Shown here: one piece after another, positions 6,927 to 26,442 of the stretch
How the letters are laid out: each line of letters begins with the position of its first letter
How positions within the stretch are numbered: position 1 is the first letter of the stretch
Source of the DNA: an uncultured Candidatus Saccharibacteria bacterium
GTDB lineage: Bacteria > Patescibacteriota > Andersenbacteria > UBA10190
Assembly: GCA_964371255.1 (NCBI GenBank)
Contig: CAYJKV010000003.1
Span: 8,458 to 72,457, forward strand
Reading direction: 5' to 3'
Length of the DNA: 64,000 nt
Program-made: the position numbers and the translations under genes
Notes under the pieces: model-generated
Seen by the model: only the letters and a program-made list of their open reading frames with translations
The model's database searches: none
Told to the model about the DNA's origin: nothing

Positions 6927-7409
6927 ATGAAAACAGCCAAAGAAAACAATGCGTTATTTGAAGTCTCCTTAAAATTCATCATCAAGGATGAAACTGATAA
7001 AATATTACTGCTTAAAATGCCCAAAACAGGGCCTATGGGTGGGTATTATGATTTGCCGGGTGGAAGAATAAAGGAACATGAAAAATCAAAACCATTCAGT
7101 GAAATTATTTCTCGAGAACTTACAGAGGAGCTCGGCACAAAGCCACGGATTACTTTTAATCAAATTCCCGTTGCTGCAGGACGGCACACCTATCCCAGAC
7201 CATCCTCGGGTGACGATGGACATATTTTCTGGGTGTTCTTTGAAGGCCTATTTCAAGGAGGAGAGATAGAGATATCCCCCGAACACGCTGGCTATAATTG
7301 GATTAGTTTAGGTAAGCACAATCTTGATAAATACTTTGTGCGAGGCCCATGGGAAGGAATGTATAACTATTTTTATAAGAGATTTCCACCTAAATTAATC
7401 CAAGATTAA
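6927..7409 (+). CDS. NUDIX hydrolase
   Basis: Nudix box GGRIKEHEKSKPFSEIISRELTEELG (Gx5Ex7REuxEExGu). Confidence 0.75.
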   Translation: MKTAKENNALFEVSLKFIIKDETDKILLLKMPKTGPMGGYYDLPGGRIKEHEKSKPFSEIISRELTEELGTKPRITFNQIPVAAGRHTYPRPSSGDDGHIFWVFFEGLFQGGEIEISPEHAGYNWISLGKHNLDKYFVRGPWEGMYNYFYKRFPPKLIQD

Positions 7410-7511
7410 TTTTTAAATTCAGACTATTAAGAACGAGTTGGGAAGTTATAATCACCCGACAACTATTTGCGATCAAACCAAACATACCAAGCAACTGTTC
7501 CTAATGTGAAA

Positions 7512-8222
7512 CTAGTCATATTCCTTATCTGATTTCATTATGACGATTGCTTCATCAAGCAACTTTTGAAAATTTCTATTTTCCCTCCAAGCTTGTCGCA
7601 ACTTATTTCTTAGTATTTGGTGCTTGGGGTAACCCCTGTCCTCAGATAAAATCACAGCATCGAATTCAGGTTCATTCAACAGAATCGTTAGCGCTTCTTT
7701 CAAATTATCGCTTTGCTTCATATTTAATCCGTTCTTCTTCAGATAATTTCTATAGTAATGCAGAAATTGAAGATGCATGATTTCATGGCAAATTGTTGTA
7801 ATCGAATCCGGGAGGCTACGCCACAACGAAACCATGAACCAATTTCCCTTTTCGTTATATGGGCACATGTAGCCTGTCGTCCAAAAACAATTAAACTTCT
7901 CAGAACAAATCGGCTTACCTGTCATTTTCTCTAAAGCTTGCCAGTACTGTTGTTCCACCATCTTCCAGGCGACTTCTAGTGATCTTATTTCTTCTTTAAT
8001 TATCAAATCCCTGTATTTACGTTTCTGATCACCTTGCAGATACTCCCTGATTATTTCTTCAGCGTCTGTAAAACTGGCTTTTAACACCTGCGATAATAAA
8101 TTCTTTGGGATATGGCCGACTTCGTCCTTCCAGTCCAGTCCCCAGAGATTTTTATCTTTAGCAATTAAAACCCAGCTCCAAGCGTCCTTCACGATATCAT
8201 ATTGAAATTTTATTTGTGACAT
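7512..8222 (-). CDS. hypothetical protein with HExxH motif (possible zinc metallopeptidase)
   Basis: ORF with ICHEIMHLQFLHYY (HExxH). The start is taken at ATG 8222 (MSQIKFQYD). The longer TTG-initiated version to 8336 would run into repeat copy A. No family was recognised. Confidence 0.45.
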   Translation of the reverse strand: MSQIKFQYDIVKDAWSWVLIAKDKNLWGLDWKDEVGHIPKNLLSQVLKASFTDAEEIIREYLQGDQKRKYRDLIIKEEIRSLEVAWKMVEQQYWQALEKMTGKPICSEKFNCFWTTGYMCPYNEKGNWFMVSLWRSLPDSITTICHEIMHLQFLHYYRNYLKKNGLNMKQSDNLKEALTILLNEPEFDAVILSEDRGYPKHQILRNKLRQAWRENRNFQKLLDEAIVIMKSDKEYD

Positions 8223-8281
8223 ATAAATTTCTATCAATATGTACCCTGTTAACCGTGTATCCCAACAGTAGCACCTATTTT

Positions 8282-8477
8282 CTCTTGATATACTATAAAA
8301 CCACATAATCCCATGGCTCCGTCGTCCCAATAACAATCACCGCGACTCGCTATTCAACCTGCCTATCTACCCTCCCCGCCCCTAAAAAATGGGGGAGTAG
8401 ACCTAGCCTGCCAGCAGCTCACTACTGACGTTAATCAAACGCTAACGTCCTTCTCTGTTGTTAAAGCCCGATGTCAG
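8282..8477. repeat. Direct repeat copy A (~196 bp), a degenerate duplicate of the 5' end of the downstream adenylating-enzyme gene (pseudo-fragment)
   Basis: Nearly identical to 11200-11396. Relative to copy B the start codon is lost (ATA versus ATG). An A-run of 6 versus 8 causes a frameshift, and the reading frame terminates within 7 codons. Confidence 0.85.
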
Positions 8478-8721
8478 CCGGCGAGGGAGAGGTTGGGCTC
8501 ACCGAAACAATTGTCAACCAACACTGACAAAACCATTTATTAATAATTGTCAAAAATCAGTTCTAACACTATGATTACACGTTGTATCTACTGTTGGTTC
8601 TTTAGACAAAAATCCCACATACAAGACCTTGTTGAAGAGCGCATAACGCTAATCGCCAGCAATGTTGCCAGCGGCTACTTCACAATGTACGTGTGTTAGG
8701 TATAGAAAGGAGGTTAATACG

Positions 8722-8880
8722 ATGAAGACAGAGCAAGTCAAGGGCATGCAAGAGAAACAGACTTACGGATTCAGCGGAAAACAAGAATCTGCCAAGATTT
8801 CTCTGAAAGCCACCAAAGTTCATGTCCAAAAGAGAGGAATGAATTCTGGCATCTCAGGCGGAAGTTCCCAATGTTGCTGA
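8722..8880 (+). CDS. candidate RiPP precursor peptide (52 aa, Lys-rich leader, C-terminal ...GISGGSSQCC)
   Basis: AAGGAGG sits 8 nt upstream of ATG 8722. The ORF track's longer 8662 start lacks an RBS. The peptide lies immediately upstream of an RRE-radical-SAM-SPASM gene and is followed by a hairpin terminator. Confidence 0.5.
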   Translation: MKTEQVKGMQEKQTYGFSGKQESAKISLKATKVHVQKRGMNSGISGGSSQCC

Positions 8881-8892
8881 ACAGATAAACTC

Positions 8893-8936
8893 GCGTGGCA
8901 TGTAATTGCTTTTTTGCATCATGCCACGCCTTTTTT
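8893..8936 (+). terminator. intrinsic terminator/attenuator between the precursor peptide and the radical SAM gene
   Basis: Stem GCGTGGCATG...CATGCCACGC is followed by CTTTTTT. Confidence 0.6.
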
Positions 8937-8950
8937 AAAAGGAGAACAGA

Positions 8951-10285
8951 ATGTCACCAACATATGTGAGGTTAGCTGATAGTGCCATATTCAAATCACG
9001 CTATGAGCAGAGGTACCTGATCAACACCTCTTGTCGTAACCGGGAACGCATTCTAATTGAAGGAGGGGCTGAACAAGTATTGCTTTTTCTATTTTCAGGA
9101 AAAAGTATCAGTGGCGCATGTACACATTTTTGTCTGGATTCAGAACAACTGACTGCCTATATACAAGGGCTGGTAGCCGAAAATGTTGTTGCTTGGTGCA
9201 CCAGTGCGATTGACTCCACAGCAAAGTGCTACAACACAGAGCCGCCACTCGATAGTATAAACATTCTTCTCACAAACGCGTGCAATCTTCATTGTGTACA
9301 CTGTGGCTTCTCGAGTGGCAAACCAATCGTGGGGGAACTAACTGGAGATGAGTGGATTAGTGTTCTTCAGGAAGCAGAACAGCTCGGTGTTTTTGAGGTC
9401 AACGTTTCCGGAGGAGAGCCAACGCTTCATAGAAATTTTATTCAGATAGCAAAACATATTTCTTCGATCCCATGCTTCAATGCCAATCTGAATACTAATG
9501 GTGTATCATTACCACCCCAGTACATTGAAACCATCGCGCAGGCCTTCACTAGTGTCCAAATTAGTATTGACGATGTTGTAGCATCAAAACATGACAAGTT
9601 TCGTGGTCGCAGAGGAAGTTTCAAGCGGTCAATAGAAACAATAAGACAGCTCGTCAATACAGGCGTCGAAACGAATATCGGTTTTACGTTAACCGCTGAT
9701 AATATTACAGCCCTAGATGATATTGTTGAGTTAGCGGAAAACTTAGGTGTCACTGTGCTGAACATCGGTCTAGTTGCCAATCTTGGTCGTGCTCACGATA
9801 ACCTACTACTAAAGGAGTTTGGAACAGGGCCGTGTCATAACAGTCCATTCATGGACCAAGTGTACCAGAGGATAAAGAAGTTATCGGTTAGTTCATCAAA
9901 TGTCCAGATTCTCCTGCCGTTTCGCATCCCTGACAAAAACCGGCCCGCGCCATTACAAGATAAGCGATACATTTGTGACGGCGATAACACGCAGGTTCTC
10001 TACATAACAGCGAATGGAAATATGATGCCTTGTGACAAGTTACCAGTTGAGGCGTTCTCTTACGGCAATGTGCGGCAGAACACGATACTGGGTACTTGGC
10101 AGTCTGATCGGATGAAAAAGTTCAAACTAATGAGTCCTAATGAGCTTCCCAAATGTAAAAAGTGCCCCGATTTAAGATTGTGTGGCGGAGCTTGTGTAGC
10201 ACGTGCTTATCAAGAGGGTGGTAGTCTGGATTCCTCAGATTGGATATCATGCGTTATTGCACAAAAGGTTTCTCAAGACTACTAG
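8951..10285 (+). CDS. radical SAM / SPASM-domain peptide-modifying enzyme with N-terminal PqqD-like RRE
   Basis: Cx3Cx2C motif NACNLHCVHCGF. The C-terminal Cys-rich SPASM region includes CDGD...MPCDKL...CKKCPDLRLCGGACVARAY. The first ~90 aa have a PqqD/RRE-like pattern. AAGGAG lies 7 nt upstream of the ATG. Confidence 0.8.
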   Translation: MSPTYVRLADSAIFKSRYEQRYLINTSCRNRERILIEGGAEQVLLFLFSGKSISGACTHFCLDSEQLTAYIQGLVAENVVAWCTSAIDSTAKCYNTEPPLDSINILLTNACNLHCVHCGFSSGKPIVGELTGDEWISVLQEAEQLGVFEVNVSGGEPTLHRNFIQIAKHISSIPCFNANLNTNGVSLPPQYIETIAQAFTSVQISIDDVVASKHDKFRGRRGSFKRSIETIRQLVNTGVETNIGFTLTADNITALDDIVELAENLGVTVLNIGLVANLGRAHDNLLLKEFGTGPCHNSPFMDQVYQRIKKLSVSSSNVQILLPFRIPDKNRPAPLQDKRYICDGDNTQVLYITANGNMMPCDKLPVEAFSYGNVRQNTILGTWQSDRMKKFKLMSPNELPKCKKCPDLRLCGGACVARAYQEGGSLDSSDWISCVIAQKVSQDY

Positions 10286-10360
10286 GCACCAGGAGAACGA
10301 TCTATCTCCTGTGCCTTTTTTATTTGTACTATCGCAGTATTATTATGTAGTTTTATTAGT

Positions 10361-11110
10361 ATGATGGATAAGCCTTGGTGGAAAACAGCCTTTAACGAAT
10401 CGTATCTTACTGCTTTTGATGACTACTACTCTGCAGTAAAAGGGGAAAAAGAGGCAGTTTTTCTTATTCAGGCATTGTCGATTAAGAAAGGCGCCAGTGT
10501 CCTTGATCTTGCATGCGGGCAAGGAAGGCACGCTATTGCACTTGCACAGAATGGCATGAAAGTAACTGGTCTTGATACTTCGGCTATTCTTTTAAACGAA
10601 GCTGGGAAAAGAGCGAAAATGGAAGGAGTGACAATCTCGTTTGTGAATGGAGACATGCGTTCATATCATGATACTAATAAATTTGAGGCTGTGCTTGTTC
10701 TGGGTAATTCGTTTGGATATTTTAGCGACAAAGATAACGAGAATGTATTATCAAATATCTCCACTTCTTTACAAGTTGGTGGTTGGTTGGTCTTAGATTT
10801 ACCAAATACACCTGGTATGCTCCGCCGGAAAATGACGGGGAAACAAATTCAGAAAAACGTGAACACAACAGTGACAACGCGCACGGTTAATTTCAACCCG
10901 GAAACATTTCGTGCAGATTTACAGTGGGAAATTTATCAAAACACAAAAAAGGTCTCATTCAATGGAAATTTGCGTTTGTACACGCCACCAGAGATTAATC
11001 ATCTTCTTAGCGAGCGAGGCTTGGTTATCAGAAAAACGTATGGTTCATTCAGTGATGAAACATACAATATTGATACAAAGCGTTACCTGGTAATAGCGCA
11101 AAAGATATAA
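10361..11110 (+). CDS. class I SAM-dependent methyltransferase
   Basis: Motif I VLDLACGQGRHAIALAQNGMKVTGLD, in a 249-aa protein. Confidence 0.75.
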   Translation: MMDKPWWKTAFNESYLTAFDDYYSAVKGEKEAVFLIQALSIKKGASVLDLACGQGRHAIALAQNGMKVTGLDTSAILLNEAGKRAKMEGVTISFVNGDMRSYHDTNKFEAVLVLGNSFGYFSDKDNENVLSNISTSLQVGGWLVLDLPNTPGMLRRKMTGKQIQKNVNTTVTTRTVNFNPETFRADLQWEIYQNTKKVSFNGNLRLYTPPEINHLLSERGLVIRKTYGSFSDETYNIDTKRYLVIAQKI

Positions 11111-11199
11111 TTAATATCACAAATAAGTTTATATTCTAAGGAAATTAGTCTTTGAGAACAGTTGAGCATTGTGGGCGCCATTCAGTAGCCTCAACCTCC

Positions 11200-11396
11200 C
11201 TCTTGATATACTATAAAACCATATGATCCCCTGGCTCCGTCGTCCCAATAACAATCACCGCGACTCGTTATTCAACCTGCCTCTCTACCCTCCAGCCCCT
11301 AAAAAAAATGGGGGAGTCGATCTAGCCTCCCAGCAGCTCACTACTGACGTTAATCAAATCTTAACGTCCTTCTCTGTTGTTAAAGCTCGCCGTCAG
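11200..11396. repeat. Direct repeat copy B (~197 bp), the intact 5' end of the PaaK-like gene
   Basis: Matches 8282-8477 with a few substitutions and a 2-nt A-run difference. It contains the ATG 11223 start and an open frame continuing into the 540-aa ORF. Confidence 0.85.
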
Positions 11397-12845
11397 TTAT
11401 CTGACGTAAGTGAGGAGGAATGGCAAGGCAGGGGAGAGAAGAGGGCGTTGGCCCTTTTCCGAGCAGCCGCTGAATATGTTCCCGCCTACAAAGATTTTCT
11501 TAAGAAGAATAAGGTTAACCCGGATAAAATTAAAACCGTCAGTGACTTCAAACAGGTGCCCTTCGTCGATAAAGAAAACTACCTGCGTGTTTACCCCTTA
11601 CAACAGCTTTGTTGGTATGGTGACTTGTCTTTCTCTCAAATAATTTCTTTTAGCTCTGGTTCATCTGGACAGCCATTGTTTTGGCCTCGCGGTCAAATAC
11701 TAGACACAGAAACTACCCTTGAACATGAATTATTCCTGTCATCGTTTTTTAATATTGATACAAAGTCCACCCTATTGCTCAATTGCTTTTCCATGGGTAT
11801 GTATGTCGCCGGTAGCATCACATTAAATAGCGTCCTTAATTTAGGCCGAAAAGGTTATCCCATAACTGTCGTTACTCCCGGAATAGACATGGAAGATATC
11901 ATCCGAGTCATCCCTGAACTAAATCCTCATTTTAACCAAATCATCATTGCTGGTTATCCACCTTTTGTAAAAGATATCCTCGATGAAGGCATCCGAGCAG
12001 GAATTAACTGGCAGGACATTTCCATTAAATTCATCTTAGCTGGTGAAGGATATAGTGAAACTTGGCGAAAGCACATATCCAAAATTGTTAATGACGGGAG
12101 CCCTCTCTACGATTTCATAAATCTTTACGGATCAGCTGACGCAGCTGTGTTAGCTCATGAAACCCCTACTTCTATTATAACGCGATCGCGACTGGCGGGA
12201 GATGATAAAGTTCGAGAAAAACTCTTTGGTAGTTCACTGTTACCATCCTTATTACAGTATTATCCTGAGCATAAATTCTTTGAGCCTGTAAACAACGAAT
12301 TGATCTTCTCTACCACCGGCGGCGTCCCTCTTGTCCGCTATAATATTCACGACAAGGGAGGAATATTAAGCAAAAAGGACATAACAAGTAATATCCCGGA
12401 ACTGGATGAGTATCATACGGAATTAAAACGCCAAAACCATCTCTGGAATTTGCCCTTCGTGTATGTTTTTGGTAAAAGCGACTGCACTATAATGTTGTAT
12501 GGTCTTAATATTTACCCGGATAACATAAAAACTGCCTTGGAAAGTGAAGCCTTAAGAAAAACAACTACTGGTCGGTTTACTATGACATCTGAATTCAACG
12601 CCAATATGGATCAATATTTGCTCATTAATGTTGAGCTTGCCCCCGCTACAGAGCCTTCTCAAGCCTTGACCAGTGATATTAGCGACGCGATTGTATCAAC
12701 TCTTAAGAAAATGAATCGTGAGTACCAAAAATTATTTAACTCCATTGGCAACAAAGCCCTACCCACAATACGTCTGCACAAAAAAGGGGAAGGTAATCTG
12801 TTCTCACGAGCCGGCAAACAAAAATGGGTGAGAAATAATCCATAA
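11223..12845 (+). CDS. phenylacetate-CoA ligase / coenzyme F390 synthetase-family adenylate-forming enzyme (CapK-like)
   Basis: AMP-binding motif SFSSGSSGQPLFWP (PaaK-family SSGTTG-like). The N-terminal LRAAAEYVPAYKDFL region is typical of the PaaK family. The protein is 540 aa. Confidence 0.7.
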   Translation: MIPWLRRPNNNHRDSLFNLPLYPPAPKKNGGVDLASQQLTTDVNQILTSFSVVKARRQLSDVSEEEWQGRGEKRALALFRAAAEYVPAYKDFLKKNKVNPDKIKTVSDFKQVPFVDKENYLRVYPLQQLCWYGDLSFSQIISFSSGSSGQPLFWPRGQILDTETTLEHELFLSSFFNIDTKSTLLLNCFSMGMYVAGSITLNSVLNLGRKGYPITVVTPGIDMEDIIRVIPELNPHFNQIIIAGYPPFVKDILDEGIRAGINWQDISIKFILAGEGYSETWRKHISKIVNDGSPLYDFINLYGSADAAVLAHETPTSIITRSRLAGDDKVREKLFGSSLLPSLLQYYPEHKFFEPVNNELIFSTTGGVPLVRYNIHDKGGILSKKDITSNIPELDEYHTELKRQNHLWNLPFVYVFGKSDCTIMLYGLNIYPDNIKTALESEALRKTTTGRFTMTSEFNANMDQYLLINVELAPATEPSQALTSDISDAIVSTLKKMNREYQKLFNSIGNKALPTIRLHKKGEGNLFSRAGKQKWVRNNP

Positions 12846-12953
12846 TTTCAGGTTATTTATCATCGTTCTCAATTGAAGCCCATTTCAATCCCCGATATGC
12901 CAAACACACCTGCCCTGAAATCATGCCCTTTGCGCCACAATTATCTTGCCATA

Positions 12954-12974
12954 TTGTCAATAACGGTTGACAAA
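12954..12974. promoter_or_regulatory. palindromic motif TTGTCAATAACGGTTGACAAA in the long intergenic region upstream of the 922-aa gene
   Basis: 7-bp inverted arms TTGTCAA/TTGACAA. It closely matches ATGTCAATAACCATTGACAAAA at 16523-16544. Related TTGTCAATAAATTGTTACAA and TTGTAACAA palindromes lie nearby at 13085-13180. Confidence 0.45.
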
Positions 12975-13215
12975 ACGCCCCAAAACTCGCTGTAGATCGT
13001 CGCTATATACCCCATAAATCAAGCCGTCTTAGGCCCTTTCAAGACAGAATCCTGCACTGTTTAACCATGTTCGTATATTGTTTGTCAATAAATTGTTACA
13101 AATTGCCTATATATACCGATTGACGTAAACCTATTCTCCTGCCTATTGTAACAATACTCAGTTTTCTGCTCGTCCTTTCCAACTAAATTTCCTCTGTTTC
13201 GAAAGGAGCTACCCA

Positions 13216-15984
13216 ATGGGTACCTCACGCCGCGTGAGGGGACTCGCCATGGAAAGTCTGGAAAGAAGGATTTATCTTTCTGCCGACCCCATTAGCCTGT
13301 CCCAATGGCAGAGCCAAGCCTGGTGTACAGGCTCGGTTTCTGAACAATCCGGTACAATCGTTGTAGCCGCCAATGGTCAAAGCCAGGGAGGCGACCATGT
13401 CGCCCTCACTGACTCGCCGGCCGTGGTTGACAGTGATCTCTATCTTGAGTTCACGCCGCAAGTCAACCATCTTGGCAACGACAAGGTGGTCTTCGAGATC
13501 AGTAATGGCAGTGGTACGCGCGTCGTCATCAACCTCGAACGCAACGACGCTGGTAACCTCTTTAGCATTACTGAACAAGAAGGGTATGGTGCACCGTCAT
13601 ATATCCAGACCGTCACCATCACCAACAACACTTCACACCGCCTGGAAATGAATGTGGATGAAGCAAGTTTTACTCTCTTCATCGACCAGCTGCCGCTCGC
13701 CACTTACCCTGGACAGCTGGCCGCGAACTCCTTTGTTCGTCTGTGCGTTCGCGGTGATAGGGAAATCGCGCAATTGCAGCTGACTGGTTTAGGCGGGATG
13801 TTCTCGGACTATACCAGTTCCTTAGGTGAATCTGGTGAAGCATCCGACCCCGCTGATCCGCTTGATGCGTCGCTTTGGCAACAGCAAACCTGGAGTACCG
13901 GTCAAGTCTCATCGACCGGCAGCCAGATTAGCCTTAGCGCCAACGGCGGAGCGCAGGGTGGAGACCATGTCGTAATCTTGCAGTCCCCAGTCGTTCCGGG
14001 AGATTTCTTTCTGGATATTCTTCCCAGTGTCAACTACGCTGCTGCGAACGCTGACAGCGACAAAGTCTTGGTTGAAATCGGCAACGGTACCACCTCGCGC
14101 CACACGGTCAATCTTGTCCGTGACAGCAATGGTGATCTGTACACAATTGTCGAGACCACAGATCCAGAGGCTCAGATTAGCCAGGTGACAATCACCAACG
14201 GCCAATCTCATCGCCTCGAGGTTAATGCGACAGAAACCGACTTCTCCGTCTTTGTCGATGAATCGCTCGTCGCTGCTTTCTCTGAGCCTTTAGCGGCCGA
14301 TGCTTTCGTCCGTTTGGGGCTGCGTGGTGACAAGGCTTTAGCGCAGGTAAGTCTCACTGGCTTAAATGGCGTCTTTACACCATATACCAGCGAGCTGATT
14401 GCCGGCGCTGAACCTCAAATCATCGAGCTCTTTGCTCTAGTTACTCTGGATGCCGCTGTCCTTCCAGTGGTGGAAGTGCCCAGCTTTGTAGCTAGCCTCT
14501 CCGCGCCGGCACCGACAGTGCCAAGCATGGGTACCGTTGAAACTGCCAGCTTCGCGCAACGCATTGCTCGCAGTATTACGTCTGCTAATACGATTGCTCG
14601 CACTGGTCGGACATATTACGACGCCGACTACGGAGTAGACGTCTACGCCGGTTCTAACCAGTACTTCGTGGAGTACAATAACGGCGCTGTTGAACTGCGA
14701 GTCATCCCCTCCGGTCTACCAGCCGGCCAGGACCACCCGTTTGTTCATGAAGTAACGCCGATTCTCCGCAACACTGCAGACGTCGGTCAGGTTGCTAAGC
14801 CGGTTAGTCGAACTGGCGCGACCTTCTACGATCCGGCACGCGGTATTGATGTCTATGCCGGTGAGGGCAAATACTTGATCGAATACACGGATGGCACCAT
14901 TGAAGAACGTAATCGACCTAGCGGCGGATACATTCCTCTTCCGGAAGACTTCACCGTCGGCGGCTCGGACTATTCCGAGCCCATGTCTGCCTTCGGACCT
15001 TCCGCGCAAGTCCTCGGTCTTTCCACGGATGGCACCAGCCCCAAGTCTAGCAGCGAACTCTACTATATCGGCCCTTCGTATGTGTCGAATAGCGGACAGC
15101 AGCGCATCGCCGGACCAGGTCAAGTTTTTCTGCAGGATCCTGTCACTAAAACGATTCTTCTTCGTCCCGTGGCAGATGGTGACGTAGCTCTGCAGAGGCC
15201 CGTATCCCCAGTAGTCACTATTGCCACCCATCCCGCTACGGTCATTACCGACCTCTTCCAGCAAACCTATGGCCGGACGCCAACCAGTGAAGAACTCTCT
15301 TACTGGCGCCAACGTACGGATAAGAGTGGGGATTCATTACTTGGAGCGATGGAGTATGCGCATCAGCAGTCTGTTGATGCAACTATAACTCAGTTAGGGT
15401 TAATAGATAGCAGTGCTATTGGATACTTTGATTCAGAGAGTCCAATGTCAGCATATGACCTTCCTGAGTTTCACAGCATTTCTCAGGTCCCCGTTGCAGA
15501 ATTCGTGGTGTCCTTAAATCTTGGCTTAATCGACCGTGATCAAGCAGCAGCCACGATTTATACGCACATCGAAGAGCTTGAGTTATGGTGGAACACTACG
15601 GTGCAAACGCATCTTGATGCATTCAGTTTATGGAAGAACGAATTAAGTTTTGTACCACCATCGCCCGTAAGCATGGAAGCGTTGTCGTTTTACATCAACA
15701 GTCCTGATTACGTAGTCACTGTAGACTCTTTACCATCATTTGTAACTGGAAGTATACATGATGGTGCCTCAACATCTATCCGAATTCGTCGTATTGGTAG
15801 TATCACTGGCACTCAAGTAACACTTGATGCCTCAGGCAATATCATTCAAGTAGGCGAGCAAGGAGCAGGCTCTGACGACATGATAAGCCCCACTAGCACC
15901 CCAGGACACATTTCACTCATAGACGGTGCACGACTTTGGGGGCATGTAACCTTGGACGTGCTTCCTTGGCTAATTTTTCAGTAG
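13216..15984 (+). CDS. large repetitive secreted or surface protein (two ~190-aa tandem N-terminal repeats, two ~80-aa repeats, DUF4214-like motif)
   Basis: AAGGAG RBS upstream of the ATG. Internal duplication is visible (QSQGGDHVALTDSP... versus AQGGDHVVILQSP...; TGRTYYDADYGVDVYAG versus TGATFYDPARGIDVYAG). A DUF4214-like LFQQTYGRTPTSEELSYWRQRTDKSGDSLLGAMEY lies near residue 700. The first ~2.1 kb is GC-rich and the last ~0.65 kb is AT-rich. Confidence 0.7.
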   Translation: MGTSRRVRGLAMESLERRIYLSADPISLSQWQSQAWCTGSVSEQSGTIVVAANGQSQGGDHVALTDSPAVVDSDLYLEFTPQVNHLGNDKVVFEISNGSGTRVVINLERNDAGNLFSITEQEGYGAPSYIQTVTITNNTSHRLEMNVDEASFTLFIDQLPLATYPGQLAANSFVRLCVRGDREIAQLQLTGLGGMFSDYTSSLGESGEASDPADPLDASLWQQQTWSTGQVSSTGSQISLSANGGAQGGDHVVILQSPVVPGDFFLDILPSVNYAAANADSDKVLVEIGNGTTSRHTVNLVRDSNGDLYTIVETTDPEAQISQVTITNGQSHRLEVNATETDFSVFVDESLVAAFSEPLAADAFVRLGLRGDKALAQVSLTGLNGVFTPYTSELIAGAEPQIIELFALVTLDAAVLPVVEVPSFVASLSAPAPTVPSMGTVETASFAQRIARSITSANTIARTGRTYYDADYGVDVYAGSNQYFVEYNNGAVELRVIPSGLPAGQDHPFVHEVTPILRNTADVGQVAKPVSRTGATFYDPARGIDVYAGEGKYLIEYTDGTIEERNRPSGGYIPLPEDFTVGGSDYSEPMSAFGPSAQVLGLSTDGTSPKSSSELYYIGPSYVSNSGQQRIAGPGQVFLQDPVTKTILLRPVADGDVALQRPVSPVVTIATHPATVITDLFQQTYGRTPTSEELSYWRQRTDKSGDSLLGAMEYAHQQSVDATITQLGLIDSSAIGYFDSESPMSAYDLPEFHSISQVPVAEFVVSLNLGLIDRDQAAATIYTHIEELELWWNTTVQTHLDAFSLWKNELSFVPPSPVSMEALSFYINSPDYVVTVDSLPSFVTGSIHDGASTSIRIRRIGSITGTQVTLDASGNIIQVGEQGAGSDDMISPTSTPGHISLIDGARLWGHVTLDVLPWLIFQ

Positions 15985-16039
15985 TCCATCGTACTCTTTA
16001 GGAGACAGATTTATGGCCGCATGTAACATTGCGGCTTTT

Positions 16040-16390
16040 TTATACTACCATTCCTAAAACCATCATTATTCCAATAATAAATACCCCCAAACTTAAATGT
16101 AACCACCCAGACAGATATCTGCGATGCAGAATTCGATAAACTCCAAAAAGAGCCAGCATACCAATACTACCTATCCATAAAAAACCAAATAAACCCGTCA
16201 ATATTAGTAATAAAATTGACGTCTCGTCTCGCATCCAGGCAAAACGATTAATAGAAGAGAAGAATACACTTAAGAATCCAAGAGACATTGAAACTAATAA
16301 AGGCAGCCACCACGACTCGACATATAACCTTATAAATCTTTCAAAGGATGGTAGGGACTGAGCAGGTATCTTTTGACCGTTATTTACCAT
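16040..16390 (-). CDS. hypothetical small membrane protein (3-4 TM helices)
   Basis: Hydrophobic ORF with no recognised family. Confidence 0.35.
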   Translation of the reverse strand: MVNNGQKIPAQSLPSFERFIRLYVESWWLPLLVSMSLGFLSVFFSSINRFAWMRDETSILLLILTGLFGFLWIGSIGMLALFGVYRILHRRYLSGWLHLSLGVFIIGIMMVLGMVV

Positions 16391-16522
16391 AAATAATTTA
16401 TACTCTTAAAAAAGATATATCTCAATCTGTATGCCTCATAAAAGTAGGACATTACACGAGATGACATAGCCATAATCTTCTAAACAACTAAAATATTCCT
16501 TTAGCAGAGCGTAAAATAAAAA

Positions 16523-16564
16523 ATGTCAATAACCATTGACAAAAACCTGTTGCCATAATATAAA
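16523..16564 (+). promoter_or_regulatory. sigma70-like promoter (TTGACA-17-TATAAA) embedded in palindrome ATGTCAATAACCATTGACAAAA
   Basis: -35 at 16536-16541, a 17-nt spacer, and -10 TATAAA at 16559-16564. It lies about 50 bp upstream of the secreted-protein gene. Confidence 0.5.
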
Positions 16565-16615
16565 TAAAAGCCCAAAGTAAGCGAAATTAATTATTTAAAT
16601 AAATCTGTGAAAACA

Positions 16616-17512
16616 ATGAAAAGTCTAATTATACTTACAGGAGCGATTTTATTGCTCTCCCCATCAATCGGCTACGCGGTCACCAGTCAGGTTTGGGTAG
16701 ACGATTTCGCTGTGAGTTTATGCGGTAATCAAAGCTTCGCCTTCTCAGGAACAGCTGAACTCAATAGTTCGGAAGAATTACTGGTGAAACTAGACAATGT
16801 GATTATTAATCACACCTTAAGCGACATTAATTGGATAACCGGACTGACACCGGTTGGTGTTGGTGCTCACACGATCAGAGCGGAAATAGTTCGCACTGCT
16901 GATAATTACATCGTAAACCAGCACCAAAGACCCTTTGTTGTTGCTTCTTGTGTGGTAAATCCCACGCCAGCCCCATCCAATGAAGGCAGCAATAGTGATT
17001 CTGACGGAGGAGGTAGTTCTGGCGGTGGTGGCGGTGGAGACGGGGGAGACGACGGCAACAACACGCCAGAACCGGCAGCTAGAAAACCTAAAGTTAAAGG
17101 CGCTAAAATCAAAGGCTCGAAATGCAGCATAGCTAACCTATCAGTACCTGCCGTTGTCGCCCGTAACTTCTCGCAAGTCTTCGGCCGCTCTATTACCCAC
17201 GCTGAAAGTGTTTATTGGAAAACAAGAGCCAGAGGCGACAAATGTAATGAAATTACTTTGGCGGGCGCGATGCGATGGCATAAACAAAAAGGTTCCGCCG
17301 GACCTACCAGAAGCCAAAACGTAGCGGGTATCAATCATGTCTCAGGTAAAGTACATCAATCTCAGATAAATTCGTTATTCCTCTCGGTTTATAACCGCAA
17401 CCCTAGCATCAGTGAAAATTCATACTGGCTATCCCGAATAAACGACAAACCATCCGTGGCCGCCATGCTTGGTGCTATGAAATTTCATTTGGCAACCCGT
17501 ATATCGCACTAG
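16616..17512 (+). CDS. secreted Gly/Asp-rich protein with two DUF4214-like motifs
   Basis: Signal peptide MKSLIILTGAILLLSPSIGYA. A low-complexity region SDSDGGGSSGGGGGGDGGDDGNN is present. Motifs ESVYWKTRARGDK...LAGAMRWH and ENSYWLSRINDKPSVAAMLGAMKFH also occur. The ATG 16616 start is preferred over the track's GTG 16607. Confidence 0.65.
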   Translation: MKSLIILTGAILLLSPSIGYAVTSQVWVDDFAVSLCGNQSFAFSGTAELNSSEELLVKLDNVIINHTLSDINWITGLTPVGVGAHTIRAEIVRTADNYIVNQHQRPFVVASCVVNPTPAPSNEGSNSDSDGGGSSGGGGGGDGGDDGNNTPEPAARKPKVKGAKIKGSKCSIANLSVPAVVARNFSQVFGRSITHAESVYWKTRARGDKCNEITLAGAMRWHKQKGSAGPTRSQNVAGINHVSGKVHQSQINSLFLSVYNRNPSISENSYWLSRINDKPSVAAMLGAMKFHLATRISH

Positions 17513-17729
17513 GCGTACCGATTAAATTTATTACCGCCAATGTTACAGATAGCAATTGCATTCTTGGCTTGAACTAGTAACTATCGTAACCACTTTCTAC
17601 GGTTGCTCTCTTAAACAATCAACAAACCAATCTAGAAGTATGTCCGTACTATCAGTGCGGTACAAAATGTCATCCCCATGCATATTAGTAAAACCTATTA
17701 CCCGCTTGCTATACTTAAAAAGGAAGTCT

Positions 17730-18707
17730 ATGGATACCATACAAAAACCTGTAATAAAAAAACGTTCTGCAATTATTGATGCCGCCATTCTTGATTTGCT
17801 TGAGTACAGAAAAAGTTGCGATCAGCAACTATATTATTCAATAGATGAAAACATCAGGTTCTTTGAGGCTGCTCGTTCGTTGCCTCGTTATATTTTTTGG
17901 CTCCTTACAGAATACTCTAAAATCAACGGACATCGTATCTTAGAGCTTTCAGATTTTCATTTGCGTGAGGGTGAATGGGAAAAGATGTTGCTTGGTCAAC
18001 TGCTTACCCTGGAAAGAAAAAACATTCCAGACCTGATCGGACCATTAAGGAAACAGCTATCAAAAGAAATCCGAACAATAACTCAGCAAAAAAATGAACC
18101 AATCGTAGTAATTAATATGGGCTGTGGCGGAATGGAAACCGAGCGAAGAATAGCCTTAGGGCTATTCAAAAAACCTCTTACCCAACCCATCATCTTTATT
18201 GGTATCGATTCTTCCCCAGCTGCCATCAAGGTTGCTCAGCAAAATTTGCGTAGTTTTAGTAAGGAATTTACGCAATTGGAAAGCCTTACCCCTGATGTCA
18301 TTCATTCAATCAAAAATATCCAAACAGACAAACCTGTTCAATTTAAAGTATTTATTGGCGATGCCCTAAATATTCATAATTATGCCGAGCCTCAAACAAT
18401 CGACATAATTTTTCATTCCAAGTTTCATCATCATCTGTCAGATCAAGACAAAAGACGCTTTGACGATATGATAAGAAAGACTGCTTGTTGTGCAATCGAA
18501 TTCGATGATTATCGGGGTGCCTATTTACCTATACTCTCTATCCTAACCGGCTGGAATAAGCCCATTCTACTAAATGGCGCTGTTATTAGCAGTCTGCGTG
18601 ATCCAACTAAAGAGGATATTAAAAACTACAAAAAAGAAGGATGGATAACCAAAATCTATCCGTTAAAAGGATTTTTGAAAATACATCACTCGTCCCAAAC
18701 CTGTTAA
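17730..18707 (+). CDS. putative class I SAM-dependent methyltransferase-fold protein
   Basis: Gly-rich motif VINMGCGGMETERRIALGL followed by IFIGIDSSPAAIKVAQQNL. The start is taken at ATG 17730, which has AGGAAG upstream. The track's TTG 17556 gives a longer version. Confidence 0.4.
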   Translation: MDTIQKPVIKKRSAIIDAAILDLLEYRKSCDQQLYYSIDENIRFFEAARSLPRYIFWLLTEYSKINGHRILELSDFHLREGEWEKMLLGQLLTLERKNIPDLIGPLRKQLSKEIRTITQQKNEPIVVINMGCGGMETERRIALGLFKKPLTQPIIFIGIDSSPAAIKVAQQNLRSFSKEFTQLESLTPDVIHSIKNIQTDKPVQFKVFIGDALNIHNYAEPQTIDIIFHSKFHHHLSDQDKRRFDDMIRKTACCAIEFDDYRGAYLPILSILTGWNKPILLNGAVISSLRDPTKEDIKNYKKEGWITKIYPLKGFLKIHHSSQTC

Positions 18708-18737: not shown

Positions 18738-20990
18738 ATGTACGCAGAAACAGTCTTCCGTCTTATTATTCTTTCCATAACTATAATTCTCGGCTTTCTT
18801 GCATATCGCAGGAATTCTCGTCATGCAACCAATACACTTCTGGCACTACTAACCGTCCTAATTTTTTTATGGGGTGTTAGTAATGAAATATCACTTTATT
18901 CAACAACTACCACAGGCACATTGTTCTGGATCCGCATGACGATGTTTTTTGCGGTACCAACAGCTGTCCTCTTTTTTGTTTTTATGCATACGTTTCCTCG
19001 TGCCAGCCTCGCGATGTCACGTCAACTAATGGCACTCGTTCTTCTAGTGACTGGCAGTGTTATGTCACTATCGTTATCACCCTGGTTGTTCACCACTATT
19101 GCCGATGGCGTGGGAGCAAACGCGAAACCTGTGCCAGGGTTTGGCATTATAATATTTGCCTTAACAGTCACCGCCGCAAATCTAACTGCTATCTACCTTT
19201 TGATTGTAAAAAACTTTAAACTCTCTGGCGTCTTTAAGCTCCAAGCCCGTTATCTCTTGCTTGGTACAGCCATTACTCTGAGTTTAATCATGGGTCTCGT
19301 TTTCTTCCCAGTTGTCTTGCTCCGCTTCACTGCTTTTGTGCCCTATCAGAGTGAGCTCATGCTACCTTTTGTCGCCCTCACCGCCTACGCCATTGTCCGT
19401 TACCGCCTCATGGACATCCGCGCTGCCATCGCTCGCAGTCTTTCCTTTTCCATTCTGCTCGGCGCCTTCTTCGCCATCTACGGCGCTATTCTCATCTTCG
19501 CTGTACCACGTTTAGCTGACTGGTTAGGTATCCGTGAAGGGTTTATCGCCGCTGTCGGCGCCCTTCTCTCTGTTTTGCTTGCCCGCTATATCCAAGAAGC
19601 CCTGCGCCGTCTCACCGACCGTTTCCTTTTCCAAAACCAAATTGATTACCGCCGCGCTCTCGTTGAAACCAGCAAGGAACTATCTACCACCATCCACATC
19701 GAAGACGTCACCAGGACTGTCCTGGATATTATGGAGAAGGTTATCCGTACTAAGAAAACCATCATTTTTCTTCAGGAAAACAAAGGCCACAATTTTACCC
19801 CTTATGCCAACCGCGGCGCCAGTTCCATCAAAGTCTCTATCCCCAAGGAGCATGTCCTAGTTCGCCATATTCAACACAACATGGGCCTGCTTGTTAAGGA
19901 TGAATTGGCTCATGAGCGCGAGCAGGAACGCGACGAATCCCACGCAGCGGAAATTAAGCAAGTGGAGCAAACTTTTGTCTGGCTCGACATGGCTGTCGTG
20001 TTACCCCTGTACGTTAACAAACAACTGACCGGCCTGATCGTTCTGGGCGACAAAAAATCCGGCACTCCTTACATGCAGGATGACCTAAACTTTCTAGCTG
20101 CCTTATCTCCCCAGGCTGCCACCGCCCTCGAAAATGCCCGTCTCTACCAGGAATCTCTGGCTTTCGGGGAAAAATTGAAATCTGAAGTTAAGCGCGCCAC
20201 TCACGAACTGGAAATTGCCAACGCCCAGTTGCGCGACTTAGACAAGGCCAAGAGTGAATTCTTGAGCATCGCTAGCCACCAGTTGTACACCCCCATGACC
20301 GCCCTCCGGGGCTACCTGTCCATGTTGCGGGAAGGGGACTATGGCGCTACTCCATCCAAACAACAACCCATCATTAAAATTCTGGAAACCAGCTCTACCC
20401 GCCTCATTAATCTAATCAAGAATTTACTCGATGTGTCGCGCATTGAAAGCGGCCGTCTTGAGCTCAATCTTGAGTCGCTGGACTTTAGTCACATGGTTAA
20501 AGAGCTTGTCCAAGATCTCATGCCTAACGCCCTTAACAAAAAAGTTAAGCTGCAATACTACCAGCCTGCAGAACAATTGCCCCATGTCGTGGCCGACCAG
20601 GAACGCGTTCGCCAGGTCATCCTCAACATCGTTGACAATGCCATTAAATACACAGACCAAGGTCGCATTGATGTCCGTGTGCAGCAAACGGACCACACCA
20701 TCACCCTTACGGTCAATGACACGGGCCGCGGCATGACGCCGGACGAAATGACCAAGCTCTTCACCAAATTCACCCGTGTCGGCGGTGCCTCCAAATACCG
20801 CAAAGAGGGGACTGGCCTTGGCCTCTACGTTGCCAAGCAAATCATCCGCGAGCATCATGGCGACATCGAAATAACGAGTCCCGGCCTGAACCACGGCTCT
20901 ACTTTCTATGTTCATCTGCCCATCGAAGGCTCGCCCAATGCCCTCACCGCCGGCAAGAAAGTATCCGTCGAAATTAAAGCGGGGAAATAA
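18738..20990 (+). CDS. sensor histidine kinase (multi-TM N-terminal sensor, GAF, HisKA, HATPase_c)
   Basis: About 6 N-terminal TM helices. A GAF-like region ends at ...LENARLYQE. The H-box is LSIASHQLYTPMTAL. N/G1/G2 boxes NIVDNAIKYT, DTGRGM and GTGLGL are present. Confidence 0.85.
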   Translation: MYAETVFRLIILSITIILGFLAYRRNSRHATNTLLALLTVLIFLWGVSNEISLYSTTTTGTLFWIRMTMFFAVPTAVLFFVFMHTFPRASLAMSRQLMALVLLVTGSVMSLSLSPWLFTTIADGVGANAKPVPGFGIIIFALTVTAANLTAIYLLIVKNFKLSGVFKLQARYLLLGTAITLSLIMGLVFFPVVLLRFTAFVPYQSELMLPFVALTAYAIVRYRLMDIRAAIARSLSFSILLGAFFAIYGAILIFAVPRLADWLGIREGFIAAVGALLSVLLARYIQEALRRLTDRFLFQNQIDYRRALVETSKELSTTIHIEDVTRTVLDIMEKVIRTKKTIIFLQENKGHNFTPYANRGASSIKVSIPKEHVLVRHIQHNMGLLVKDELAHEREQERDESHAAEIKQVEQTFVWLDMAVVLPLYVNKQLTGLIVLGDKKSGTPYMQDDLNFLAALSPQAATALENARLYQESLAFGEKLKSEVKRATHELEIANAQLRDLDKAKSEFLSIASHQLYTPMTALRGYLSMLREGDYGATPSKQQPIIKILETSSTRLINLIKNLLDVSRIESGRLELNLESLDFSHMVKELVQDLMPNALNKKVKLQYYQPAEQLPHVVADQERVRQVILNIVDNAIKYTDQGRIDVRVQQTDHTITLTVNDTGRGMTPDEMTKLFTKFTRVGGASKYRKEGTGLGLYVAKQIIREHHGDIEITSPGLNHGSTFYVHLPIEGSPNALTAGKKVSVEIKAGK

Positions 20991-24867: not shown

Positions 24868-26442
24868 CTACCTTCTCGTCTTCCCCTGCGCATCTTTCAA
24901 CCATTGAATCGTCCCTCCTAGTTTTTCTATAGTGTTCCGGTCACCTGACTCTATCCGGCCATACCAATAATCCTTATCCGCCTCGTCCGGCTCCTTTTGG
25001 TGCGTAAAGTAGAACAGGTAGGGAAACCAATGGCTCTTTAATTTGTCGCCGCCAATCTCAGCCGTCCATGACGTTCTTGCTGGCTTTTTCCCGGTAACAG
25101 CCGCCCTCTTCATCGCCGCGCGCAAGTCCGCCTCATTATTCACTTCACCGTTGTAAATATAATCCACCCAGAATTTATTCTCACTCACCGTCGGCTCCTT
25201 GTCATACGCTGTCAGGTAATAATCATTCACGTTATTAATCATTGTTCGGATATGCGGTCTCACCTTTATTAAAGTAGATGAAGTATTGGGCGCGGCCGAG
25301 GGCTGCTCTTTGCCGGCACTGCTCGCCACCACCGATTTAAAAGCGCCGATCGAATAACCGTGCGGATAGCGTTTTAAGAATTCCGGATAATTTTTCATTA
25401 CGTATTTTTGTTTATATCCCATCGCGGCGAATACCCCGGGAGAGGCGACTAACCTCAGCTTCCCGCCTTGCACCACGTAGATATTGTTACCCAAGCCGAC
25501 CACCCATCCGTTCGGGTATCTTTCAATATTTGATCCTCTTTCATGACGTGCCAACATGGCCGTATTAGCGGGTGCGCGCATACTCTCGTCCGGATTCCCG
25601 TCTGCTTCGTAAATATAATCAGAGAGATACAAATGCTTTGTTAATTTGCCTCCACTGGCTTCCTTAATCCGCCAAATCTGGCCGCCGTGCCACGCTCCGG
25701 AATAAACCACCATCCCGCCCGGATATTGCGTGGTGGAAGATAACGCCGGCCCTGTCGCAAACTCACTCAAGTGCGCGGCGCTCGTGCCGTATAAATTACC
25801 ATCCGGCATCTTGTAAGCCGCGCGTAAACTCGCTGAGATTTTCCGTTTGCGGAACTTATCGTCAATATAATATTGCGTTCCGTCTGGGTGCTGTAACACT
25901 TTACCGATGTAAATCTCATTCACTGATATTGTTTGGGGGTAACGTGCCAGGTCTTCCTCAGAAACAGTAATAATAATATCATGTTTAAAATAGTGGTTCT
26001 CGTTCAGCCACCGGTCGATCACGGCCGGCAACACCCAACTTTTCTTTCCGCCTCGTAAATAATAAACAGCGCTCTTGGTGGGGGATTTTACCAGTGTTCC
26101 GTCCGGCAAGAAATTTGGATTTATCGCGGAAGGATATAGATTTTTCGCCACTTTAAAATTTTTCGCCGTCGGTACATTGCTCGCGTTCAGACTGGTGATT
26201 CCAGCCACGCTTGTTCCCATAGTTTTTCTATATCCGATTGCCCCCACTAGTTCCCGATAGGTCTTTTTCTCACCGCGAGTGACCCGCGCGGCCCAATAAG
26301 ACCATTCAGCTGTCGTCGGCAGGCGATTGTTTATCTCTCGAAACGCTTGATTAATCTGGTCAATCAACGCCGCCTCCGCGACAAGTGGTAGGCTTAATAA
26401 AAGCAAAAAAGTGGCTATCAATTTTGCCACACGACTTCTCAT
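24868..26442 (-). CDS. secreted protein with DUF4214-like motifs
   Basis: Signal peptide MRSRVAKLIATFLLLLSLPLVAEA. Motifs TAEWSYWAARVTRGEKKTYRELVGAIGY and DKDYWYGRIESGDRNTIEKLGGTIQWL. Confidence 0.65.
   Translation of the reverse strand: MRSRVAKLIATFLLLLSLPLVAEAALIDQINQAFREINNRLPTTAEWSYWAARVTRGEKKTYRELVGAIGYRKTMGTSVAGITSLNASNVPTAKNFKVAKNLYPSAINPNFLPDGTLVKSPTKSAVYYLRGGKKSWVLPAVIDRWLNENHYFKHDIIITVSEEDLARYPQTISVNEIYIGKVLQHPDGTQYYIDDKFRKRKISASLRAAYKMPDGNLYGTSAAHLSEFATGPALSSTTQYPGGMVVYSGAWHGGQIWRIKEASGGKLTKHLYLSDYIYEADGNPDESMRAPANTAMLARHERGSNIERYPNGWVVGLGNNIYVVQGGKLRLVASPGVFAAMGYKQKYVMKNYPEFLKRYPHGYSIGAFKSVVASSAGKEQPSAAPNTSSTLIKVRPHIRTMINNVNDYYLTAYDKEPTVSENKFWVDYIYNGEVNNEADLRAAMKRAAVTGKKPARTSWTAEIGGDKLKSHWFPYLFYFTHQKEPDEADKDYWYGRIESGDRNTIEKLGGTIQWLKDAQGKTRR

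Follow-up and report, generated by a model that had tools for sequence, protein, structure and literature searches.

A GC step within a modular protein gene of a Patescibacteria bacterium marks the edge of an exchangeable cassette

INTRODUCTION

The immunity proteins that protect against pore-forming colicins are small inner-membrane proteins with three to four transmembrane (TM) helices. The IdsD protein of Proteus mirabilis, which is transferred or exposed, has a variable region matched to IdsE, its cognate small integral membrane protein, and the two co-vary between strains. Polymorphic toxin systems, among them CdiA-CT/CdiI, Rhs-CT/RhsI, and MafB/MafI, have conserved junction motifs and orphan modules that carry a 5' homology region, and the immunity genes of pore-forming colicins lie on the strand opposite to the toxin gene (PMC4436062). 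Here, we analyzed a stretch of 64,000 nucleotides (the window) of contig CAYJKV010000003.1, from an uncultivated bacterium of the candidate phyla radiation (CPR, or Patescibacteria), and describe a gene for a 922-aa modular protein whose GC content falls near 15.3 kb. This GC step is the 5' edge of an exchangeable cassette of ~1.1 kb, which contains the tail of the protein and a convergent gene for a small membrane protein and has a history different from that of the rest of the gene.

The locus resembles polymorphic toxin systems in several respects. A large multidomain protein keeps a conserved N-terminal and central region, and its C-termini diverge past a conserved junction motif. The C-terminal ~100 to 200 aa co-vary with an adjacent small gene between close relatives, the same C-terminal domain is found on a different scaffold (protein P0045), 5'-truncated orphan modules made of C-terminus and partner, with a 5' homology region, are present in relatives, and some loci lie in mobile contexts. 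There are also differences. A polytopic membrane protein is the product of the partner gene, which is convergent instead of co-directional, an orientation known only for pore-forming colicins (PMC4436062); the C-terminal domain falls outside the known toxin families; no trafficking domain of the two-partner, type VI (T6SS), type VII, or Sec secretion type was recognized; few C-terminal types have been found so far; and the organism is a member of the Patescibacteria. The gene order at 15376-16390 matches that of the pore-forming colicins (A, E1, and Ia), with the immunity gene directly past the toxin C-terminal domain on the opposite strand. However, the tail is predicted to be a small α/β domain and not a ten-helix pore-forming bundle, no colicin family of Pfam was matched, the locus is chromosomal and without a lysis gene, and the N-terminal and central domains are unrelated to the translocation and receptor domains of colicins. 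There is likewise no sequence relationship with IdsD/IdsE and no T6SS context, and gene order and orientation are different. Modular exchange of C-terminal cassettes is a known mechanism, seen here in a new lineage and a new guise; in the literature, we found no link between Patescibacteria and polymorphic toxins of this kind.

RESULTS AND DISCUSSION

GC content drops inside the gene for the 922-aa protein

The 922-aa ORF (open reading frame) is present in the ORF list of the window, as the first-pass annotation of this DNA had stated, and encodes, in order, an N-terminal non-Sec motif, two lectin-like repeats, a β-repeat core, a DUF4214-like helical module, a junction motif, and a tail of ~200 aa (Table 1). 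Sliding-window GC content and codon usage along the gene give a stepped profile, not a uniform one: GC is 0.50 to 0.59 up to ~15300 and 0.40 to 0.49 beyond, with averages of 0.547 for codons 1 to 700 versus 0.452 for codons 701 to 922. The values at the first, second, and third codon positions (GC1/GC2/GC3) are 0.611/0.469/0.561 in the former and 0.527/0.437/0.392 in the latter; since the largest fall occurs at GC3, the drop is mostly synonymous, without effect on the amino acids. A maximum-likelihood scan places the change point at codon 698 for GC3 and at codon 705 for total GC, which bears out the proposed switch, at about 15330, from a GC-rich N-terminal part to an AT-rich C-terminal third. 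The GC3 log-likelihood ratio at the step is 10.4, a value reached by none of 1,000 permutations (maximum, 7.8), and it tops the best break in all other long genes tested bar one histidine-kinase gene. The step lies within the motif TYGRTPTSEELSYWRQRTDKSGDSLLGAMEY (aa 684-714, nt 15265-15357), the very motif with which the switch had been said to coincide.

Table 1. Coordinates of the features of the locus (positions of the window unless another contig is named)
Feature	Coordinates	Strand	Basis or remark
Upstream intergenic/promoter region	12846..13215	+	Aligns with L001; full conservation, in blocks, near the ribosome-binding site and the two motif copies
922-aa modular protein gene	13216..15984	+	ORF list
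N-terminal motif LAMESLERRIYLSADP (aa 10-25), "Planctomycete extracellular"-like	13243..13290	+	PF07595 sub-threshold; conserved in relatives
Two tandem ~190-aa repeats (aa 23-205, 206-395), lectin/LamG-like	13282..14400	+	Self-alignment, Pfam
Linker (aa 396-475)	14401..14640	+	Protein conserved, synonymous divergence far above both flanks
Conserved family core (aa 435-720), ending in junction motif RTDKSGDSLLGAMEYAHQQ	14518..15375	+	Family alignment
Compositional change point	15310..15331	+	Maximum-likelihood scan: GC3, nt 15310; total GC, nt 15331
Exchanged cassette: tail, terminator, convergent small membrane-protein gene and its start region	15380..16481		blastn, global alignment, saturated sites
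Conserved ~95-115-aa terminal domain, marginally AMOP-like	15631..15978	+	9 homologues aligned
Intrinsic-terminator-like hairpin with T run, between the convergent genes	16015..16036	+	Sequence
Small membrane-protein gene (116 aa, 3-4 TM), putative tail partner	16040..16390	-	Hydropathy analysis
Divergent promoter region, membrane-protein gene/301-aa gene	16391..16606		Palindrome copy ATGTCAATAACCATTGACAA at 16523-16542, conserved in L001 at 5358
301-aa protein gene, Sec signal peptide, two DUF4214-like motifs	16607..17512	+	Motif similarity to the 922-aa protein, E 4e-6 and 1e-5
Palindrome sites, window	12954-12973, 13082-13101, 16523-16542, 3107-3126, 3302-3321, 51899-51918
Palindrome sites, relatives	L001 1810, 5358; L002 1663; L003 4600, 7681

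The GC-rich side of the step is the one that fits the housekeeping genes of the window. The window as a whole has a GC content of 0.469, and its genes are bimodal: housekeeping genes (clpC, ligA, gatA, pheT, gyrB, and others) have a GC of 0.48 to 0.52 and a GC3 of 0.46 to 0.56, and AT-rich genes (GC of 0.35 to 0.47) are confined to the local neighbors at 6.9-12.8 kb and 16.0-18.7 kb. The AT-rich composition that had been taken as typical of the surrounding genome is thus a property of these neighbors only. With a codon-usage classifier trained on 13 core genes versus 10 low-GC genes of the window, codons 1 to 700 score +0.094 per codon (log-likelihood ratio), within the range of the core genes (+0.03 to +0.12), and codons 701 to 922 score -0.086, within that of the low-GC accessory genes (-0.015 to -0.148). 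The N part therefore has housekeeping-type codon usage and is not compositionally foreign; the GC-richer part looks native, and the AT-rich part resembles the accessory genes nearby.

A mis-join near 15.3 kb could also produce such a step. Using the identical membrane-protein ORF, we found five further contigs, from five samples, that all run across the junction (L098, L099, and L102 at 100% identity, L100 at 99.1%, and L101 at 98.1%), two of them at ~28 to 30x coverage according to the contig names. Because five independent contigs reproduce the junction, the step is not a mis-join. The reading frame is moreover continuous, and the orthologues on two related contigs, L001 and L002, have the same architecture. 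With nothing but the composition step itself in its favor, an assembly chimera has a negligible probability. L100 and L101, at ~2x coverage, have split ORFs.

The exchanged segment is the AT-rich tail with the convergent gene

L001, a Logan contig, is syntenic with the window, with a PaaK-like gene, the orthologue of the 922-aa gene, a small minus-strand ORF, and a gene for a 300-aa DUF4214-like protein. The orthologue shares ~90% aa identity with the window protein in the N-terminal and central parts and has the same GC step. Nucleotide alignment by blastn covers 11252-12852 (88%), 12871-15379 (88%), and 16482-17600 (84%), and nothing aligns within 15380-16481. In a global alignment, identity is ~0.92 up to 15165, apart from a dip to 0.63-0.75 at 14416-14640, then 0.65 at 15316 and 0.33 to 0.47 from 15391 on. 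Nei-Gojobori estimates of synonymous and nonsynonymous divergence (dS and dN) agree with these limits (Table 2). Since synonymous sites are saturated in the tail and in the small ORF, these have not diverged in place over the same time as their flanks, and the segment from about nt 15380 to 16481 has been exchanged as a unit. The direct repeat at 15937/16014 does not qualify as a recombination scar, since its second copy is the stem of the terminator hairpin.

Table 2. Divergence between the window and L001 (pS, proportion of synonymous differences)
Region	dS	dN	dN/dS
aa 1-205	0.21	0.026
aa 206-395	0.23	0.054
aa 396-475	1.13	0.183	0.16
aa 476-660	0.34	0.024
aa 661-720	0.83	0.080
Tail, aa 721-922	pS 0.82 (saturated)	0.73
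Convergent small ORF	pS 0.75 (saturated)	0.94
Flanking PaaK-like gene	0.59	0.041
Flanking 301-aa gene	0.60	0.094

By these estimates, the 922-aa gene is a patchwork of segments with different ages. The repeats of aa 1-395 have a dN/dS of 0.12 to 0.24. The linker that follows, which includes the hydrophobic stretch IIELFALVTLDAAVLPVVEV, is conserved as a protein between the window and L001, with a dS five times that of its neighbors; this suggests that 14401-14640 is a separate, older recombination tract within the gene. In L001, a 1-nt deletion at ~2644 (window 13791) splits the orthologue into ORFs of 202 and 701 aa; the gene may truly be a pseudogene, or the Logan contig may contain an assembly error at this site.

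These comparisons also bear on the direction of the exchange. The first-pass annotation had called the gene chimeric: a native, AT-rich C-terminal module of the DUF4214 type would have been joined by fusion to a GC-rich repeat module, either recently acquired or strongly biased. "Chimeric" is a fair word for a gene made of segments with different histories, but the proposed direction and timing are contradicted. It is true that the GC-rich part is a local outlier among AT-rich neighbors, that dS is 0.21 to 0.23 in the first 395 codons versus 0.59 to 0.60 in the flanks, which could mean a recent exchange of the N part, and that the N-terminal motif resembles one typical of the GC-rich Planctomycetes. 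However, the N part has the codon usage of housekeeping genes, and the DUF4214-like motif, as part of the conserved core, lies on the 5' side of nt 15379, where the homology breaks. Furthermore, L002 has the same architecture and a GC drop near the 3' end at only 40% aa identity; since architecture and GC drop are kept in both L001 and L002, the fusion is old. Finally, the exchanged piece is the AT-rich one, namely, the tail with the membrane-protein gene. A recent fusion of a GC-rich module is therefore very improbable. For genome scans, this means that the edge of a cassette can show as an intragenic GC step and that, of the two sides, the GC-rich one may be the resident in spite of its "foreign" look.

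Tail and core have different relatives

The public data contain one protein identical to the window protein (P0001) and one relative with 72% identity (P0002). An exhaustive HMMER search returned 50 relatives, and a word-index protein search gave two matches for the whole protein, two for a tail profile, and five for a membrane-protein profile. A profile search of genome contigs with the protein alignment found nothing. Among metagenome contigs, a scan with the core alignment added one locus, L093, and a scan with a narrower alignment of the tail found nothing.

Over the core (aa 435-720), the window protein shares 89% identity with P0002, 62% with P0004, and 59% with P0003. Its tail ranks these proteins differently, with 26% identity to P0002, 50% to P0004, 54% to P0021, and 43% to P0003, and the tail of P0002 is closest to those of P0048 and P0045 (41 to 42%). 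This mismatch between tail and core identities indicates that two subtypes of one tail domain were swapped between close relatives. In P0045, the domain (aa 568-680) stands on another scaffold altogether, after FG-GAP-like repeats and a Planctomycete-type N-terminal motif, without the family core. Fifteen residues are invariant in the nine homologues of the domain: Y832, D837, H848, R856, I857, G861, G865, Q867, D871, I877, D888, S891, P892, H910, and D914.

The tail and the small ORF might instead be fast-evolving sequences that, under relaxed constraint, drifted to an AT-biased mutational equilibrium without any exchange. Such drift would fit the low GC3 of the tail (0.39), its protein identity of 26%, and a structural model that is poor outside the core of the domain. 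Under neutral drift, however, the dS of the flanks (0.2 to 0.6) predicts a nucleotide identity of ~70 to 85%, and 33 to 47% is observed; the window tail is nearer to a far more distant protein than to P0002 (50% versus 26%); fifteen residues do not vary among nine homologues; and the break points are sharp on both sides. We consider drift in place quite improbable, and exchange of the cassette very probable, as the explanation of the mosaic.

After the junction motif, whose consensus is RTDK.G..L.GAM(E/Q)Y, the tails of the family fall into three unrelated classes. The first, 320 to 466 aa long, is homologous in 12 proteins; the second is the tail domain of the window protein, found in 5 proteins; and the third is a hydrophobic Gly/Ala-rich tail, found in L093. 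At L093 800-1418, the core is kept up to GAMQYAHQQGVD and is followed by this unrelated C-terminus, reminiscent of membrane-active peptides, then by an insertion sequence (IS)-type transposase; there is no small membrane-protein gene. Two of the three loci examined for the first class (P0006, at L095, and P0007, at L094) lie in runs of co-directional large genes, with Beta_helix and CHAP neighbors at L095. As PHROGs has no match for the 922-aa protein or for P0006, P0007, and P0009, and searches for viral folds likewise gave no support, a phage origin of the long-tail subfamily is a hint only.

The tail domain is linked to a convergent membrane-protein gene

In the loci compared, the tail domain always has a small convergent neighbor. 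All eight tail-domain loci with downstream sequence (window, L001, L002, L005, L006, L007, L008-L011, and L012) have a convergent ORF of 92 to 165 aa with two to four hydrophobic segments, which ends between -3 and +122 nt from the stop codon, versus none of the four family loci without the tail domain (L093 to L096; Fisher's exact test, P = 0.002 [1/495]). The partner proteins are barely alike yet have a common topology and short motifs: identity is 17 to 21% between window and L001 (E = 6e-4 at 21%) and 28% between L005 and L007. No family of Pfam or NCBIfam matches them. In the window, some gene callers start the membrane-protein gene later, which yields a product of 82 aa; its GC content is 0.36.

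Tail and partner also occur together apart from the full-length gene. The 98-aa tail ORF seen in L008-L011 (7 contigs) is a start-less, 5'-truncated fragment that has kept its convergent membrane gene; on the upstream side, its frame continues across the N-terminal part of the domain, which is conserved, and reaches the end of the preceding gene. L007 holds a tandem array, which comprises the start of a membrane gene; a module that begins inside the core (FQDPITKTILLRP) and contains an in-frame stop, the DUF4214-like motif, the junction, and the tail; a membrane gene; and, lastly, another DUF4214-like motif with its junction and tail. The modules of this array have in common a 5' homology region of 277 nt with 86% identity, and the arrangement in L012 is similar. 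L005 and L006 lie amid transposase and conjugation genes.

The gene for the 301-aa protein, on the far side of the membrane-protein gene, often accompanies the cassette. The core hidden Markov model (HMM) matches the 301-aa protein twice, and its homologues adjoin the cassette in L001 (81%), L002 (50%), and L005 (31 to 34%). The trio of 922-aa gene, membrane-protein gene, and 301-aa gene is thus kept in L001, L002, and L005; in L002, it stands at a different position within an otherwise syntenic region.

Domains of the 922-aa protein

Neither the core nor the tail nor the partner belongs to a described family, and NCBIfam has no match for the 922-aa protein, the small membrane protein, or the 301-aa protein. 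At the N terminus, the "Planctomycete extracellular" family PF07595 scores 13.7 bits (E = 0.054), under its gathering cut-off of 25.5 bits, and it is also sub-threshold in P0005 (21.2 bits) and P0045 (16.4 bits). The motif (RRL.LE.LE.R..LSADP) recurs at the N termini of P0005, P0045, and the orthologues in L001 and L002 (L002 ~1920-1990), and it may be a non-classical export signal common to several phyla. The protein had been described as of secreted type, but the first 60 aa contain no hydrophobic Sec-type signal (maximum 11-residue hydropathy of 0.87 versus 3.02 for the 301-aa neighbor).

Protein alignment confirmed both pairs of repeats that had been noticed: the tandem repeats of ~190 aa (aa 23-203 versus 213-394; 46% identity, E = 5e-55) and two shorter ones (46% identity over 52 aa, E = 2e-15). 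Searches for tandem and other DNA repeats in the gene found none, so the duplications are old. The ~190-aa repeats are probably lectin or LamG-like jelly-roll domains, judging from Pfam: Gal-bind_lectin (PF00337) reaches 23.9 bits over the whole protein (cut-off, 22.1) with no single stretch above the cut-off, the separate repeats match it at E = 0.001 to 0.12, and Laminin_G matches weakly (E = 0.01). These repeats are seen only in the window protein, P0002, and P0003. The core, in contrast, is common to ~30 proteins and consists of two five-stranded β repeats of ~50 aa, a third β unit, and a three-helix DUF4214-like module, which is its last element.

The name DUF4214-like, given to this module by the first-pass annotation, needs qualification. 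The module is short and helical, follows the pattern F..(V/T)(F/Y)GR.P...E..YW.......G..L.GAM, and pairs with both motifs of the 301-aa neighbor, one of which is weakly PF13946-positive. However, PF13946 (DUF4214) itself does not match aa 661-726 even at E ≤ 10; it finds only the second motif of the neighbor, below threshold (E = 0.0087, 16.5 bits; cut-off, 23.2). The role of last conserved element before a variable tail has, moreover, not been described for DUF4214, on which the literature is sparse.

The only candidate relative of the tail domain is the AMOP domain (PF03782; Isthmin-1, MUC4, and SUSD2), and the likeness is marginal and spans half the domain. AMOP domains are extracellular and associated with adhesion; they have a distinctive half-barrel fold and are defined by eight cysteines in four strictly conserved disulfides (PMC12000326). 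In contrast, there is not a single cysteine in aa 701-922, and PF03782 is absent among the matches of all nine tail domains at E ≤ 1. We therefore treat this marginal similarity as a lead and not as membership. Our literature search found no link between AMOP and polymorphic toxins.

A cognate pair with effector/immunity logic?

By analogy with the systems described above, the tail domain and the membrane protein may form a co-evolving cognate pair that follows the logic of polymorphic effectors and their immunity proteins. The lectin-like N terminus and the β-repeat stalk would expose the tail to a target cell, which could be the host of the CPR bacterium or a competitor, and the membrane protein, separately transcribed from the opposite strand, would protect the producer or recognize self. 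Recombination at the conserved junction motif would swap cassettes of tail plus partner, and their low GC content would be the trace of a cassette that circulates as accessory DNA rather than the native state of the gene. Taken in full, as an exchangeable cassette with an effector/partner function, this proposal seems to us somewhat better than even; a toxin/immunity pair in the strict sense would account for rather less than half of it.

Several points weigh against this proposal. The tail domain matches no toxin fold or family in Pfam or NCBIfam; its AlphaFold model, a small α/β domain, is poor overall (pLDDT, 59.7); and AMOP, which alone it resembles, and marginally so, is associated with adhesion and is not a toxin. 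In most cases, immunity genes run in the direction of the toxin gene and have soluble products. The close subfamily has one tail-domain family (with two subtypes) and one alternative tail, against dozens in the contact-dependent growth inhibition (CDI) and Rhs systems, and the 12-member subfamily has a single homologous long tail. Neither a secretion system nor a classical signal peptide was identified, and Pfam and NCBIfam reveal no secretion genes adjacent to the locus. The linkage is drawn from a small sample of eight independent tail-domain loci, there is no orphan tail copy within the window, and the AT-richness of the membrane-protein gene is partly due to its content of hydrophobic amino acids.

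Alternatively, the pair may be non-toxic. The tail would then bind the small membrane protein as a domain for docking, anchoring, or self-recognition, either tethering the large protein to the membrane of the producer or serving kin or host recognition as in IdsD/IdsE, and its variability would come from co-evolution or from phage or host pressure instead of a conflict between toxin and immunity. The partner is indeed an integral membrane protein, no toxin signature was found in the tail, and linkage and co-divergence fit this explanation as well as they fit the toxin. Harder to reconcile with a simple anchor are the orphan tails that keep their membrane gene and the tandem arrays with recombination homology, the fact that the domain is carried by unrelated scaffolds and lies close to conjugative and transposable elements, and a partner gene that is convergent and separately transcribed, not co-transcribed. 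A non-toxic pair is in our view unlikely, but because of the missing toxin signature, the hint at an adhesion domain, the few tail types, and the lack of an export route, it is a serious rival to the effector/immunity proposal.

A broader picture is tentative, and we consider it possible but doubtful: a two-gene cassette, composed of an AMOP-like domain of ~100 aa, with an extracellular role as effector or in recognition, and a cognate partner with 3 to 4 TM helices from the opposite strand, would circulate in Patescibacteria and other uncultivated bacteria and be swapped at the DUF4214-like junction onto adhesin-like scaffolds, for strain-specific antagonism or self/host recognition of episymbiotic CPR cells. 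Patescibacteria are ubiquitous, mostly uncultivated epibionts, and the locus is a testable candidate for a determinant of cell recognition, attachment, or antagonism: a large lectin-bearing surface protein whose tip is exchanged together with a matching membrane protein. If an effector/immunity or self-recognition function is true, polymorphic-toxin logic would reach the CPR bacteria with new domain families, and the DUF4214-like motif would acquire a function, that of a junction for recombination. The tail might also prove to be a prokaryotic relative of the AMOP adhesion domain of animals.

A palindrome in the intergenic regions

The 370-bp intergenic region upstream of the 922-aa gene, which had been described as full of palindromes, is only weakly enriched in them: there are four inverted repeats with arms of at least 6 nt versus 1.1 expected, a number reached in 30 of 500 shuffles. 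Only TTGTCAATAACGGTTGACAA, at 12954-12973, is clearly non-random; it is followed by a degenerate copy and by a GGAG ribosome-binding site just 5' of the ATG. In the window, the palindrome TTGTCAATAAC-NN-TTGACAA has six matches with three mismatches or fewer versus 0.06 expected, and it is also found 5' of the orthologues in L001 and L002 to L004. Its placement and conservation suggest an operator-like element and a small regulon under one regulator.

Genomic setting and other genes of the window

The window is part of a bacterial chromosome: it encodes ClpC, LigA, GatA, iPGM, PheT, GyrB, and a PilB-type ATPase as well as seven tRNAs. Its GyrB shares 73% identity with the counterpart in a Candidatus Andersenbacteria metagenome-assembled genome and 58 to 64% with those of many other Patescibacteria, which supports the assignment to this group.

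The DUF4214-like module is found elsewhere in the window. In a 524-aa ORF at 24868-26442 (minus strand), which has no Pfam match, the helical motif occurs one to three times (core HMM, E = 2.9e-6). At least three proteins within 64 kb thus have the module, whose general function in this organism may be surface attachment.

The AT-rich accessory block at 6927-12845 contains a NUDIX gene, a 274-aa minus-strand ORF without assignment, a radical S-adenosylmethionine (SAM)/SPASM gene, a SAM methyltransferase gene, and the gene for the PaaK-like adenylating enzyme. The radical-SAM/SPASM protein is peptide-maturase-like, its best matches being maturases of sactipeptides and of other ribosomally synthesized and post-translationally modified peptides (RiPPs), all far under the cut-offs. 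L002 lacks the NUDIX, radical-SAM/SPASM, and methyltransferase genes, and ThiF is there directly followed by the PaaK-like gene; ~4.5 kb thus appears to have been inserted in the window. The block could be a RiPP-type cluster.

Finally, the histidine-kinase gene mentioned above (HisKA_7TM; 18738-20990, plus strand) has a GC3 step of its own at about codon 183 (~nt 19290), from 0.39 to 0.61, with a log-likelihood ratio of 14.3, stronger than that of the 922-aa gene. The 5' part, which is AT-rich, codes for a portion of the N-terminal 7TM region and adjoins an AT-rich accessory gene (17556-18707) that is missing from the syntenic L002. This step may be a second recombination boundary or an effect of the membrane domain.

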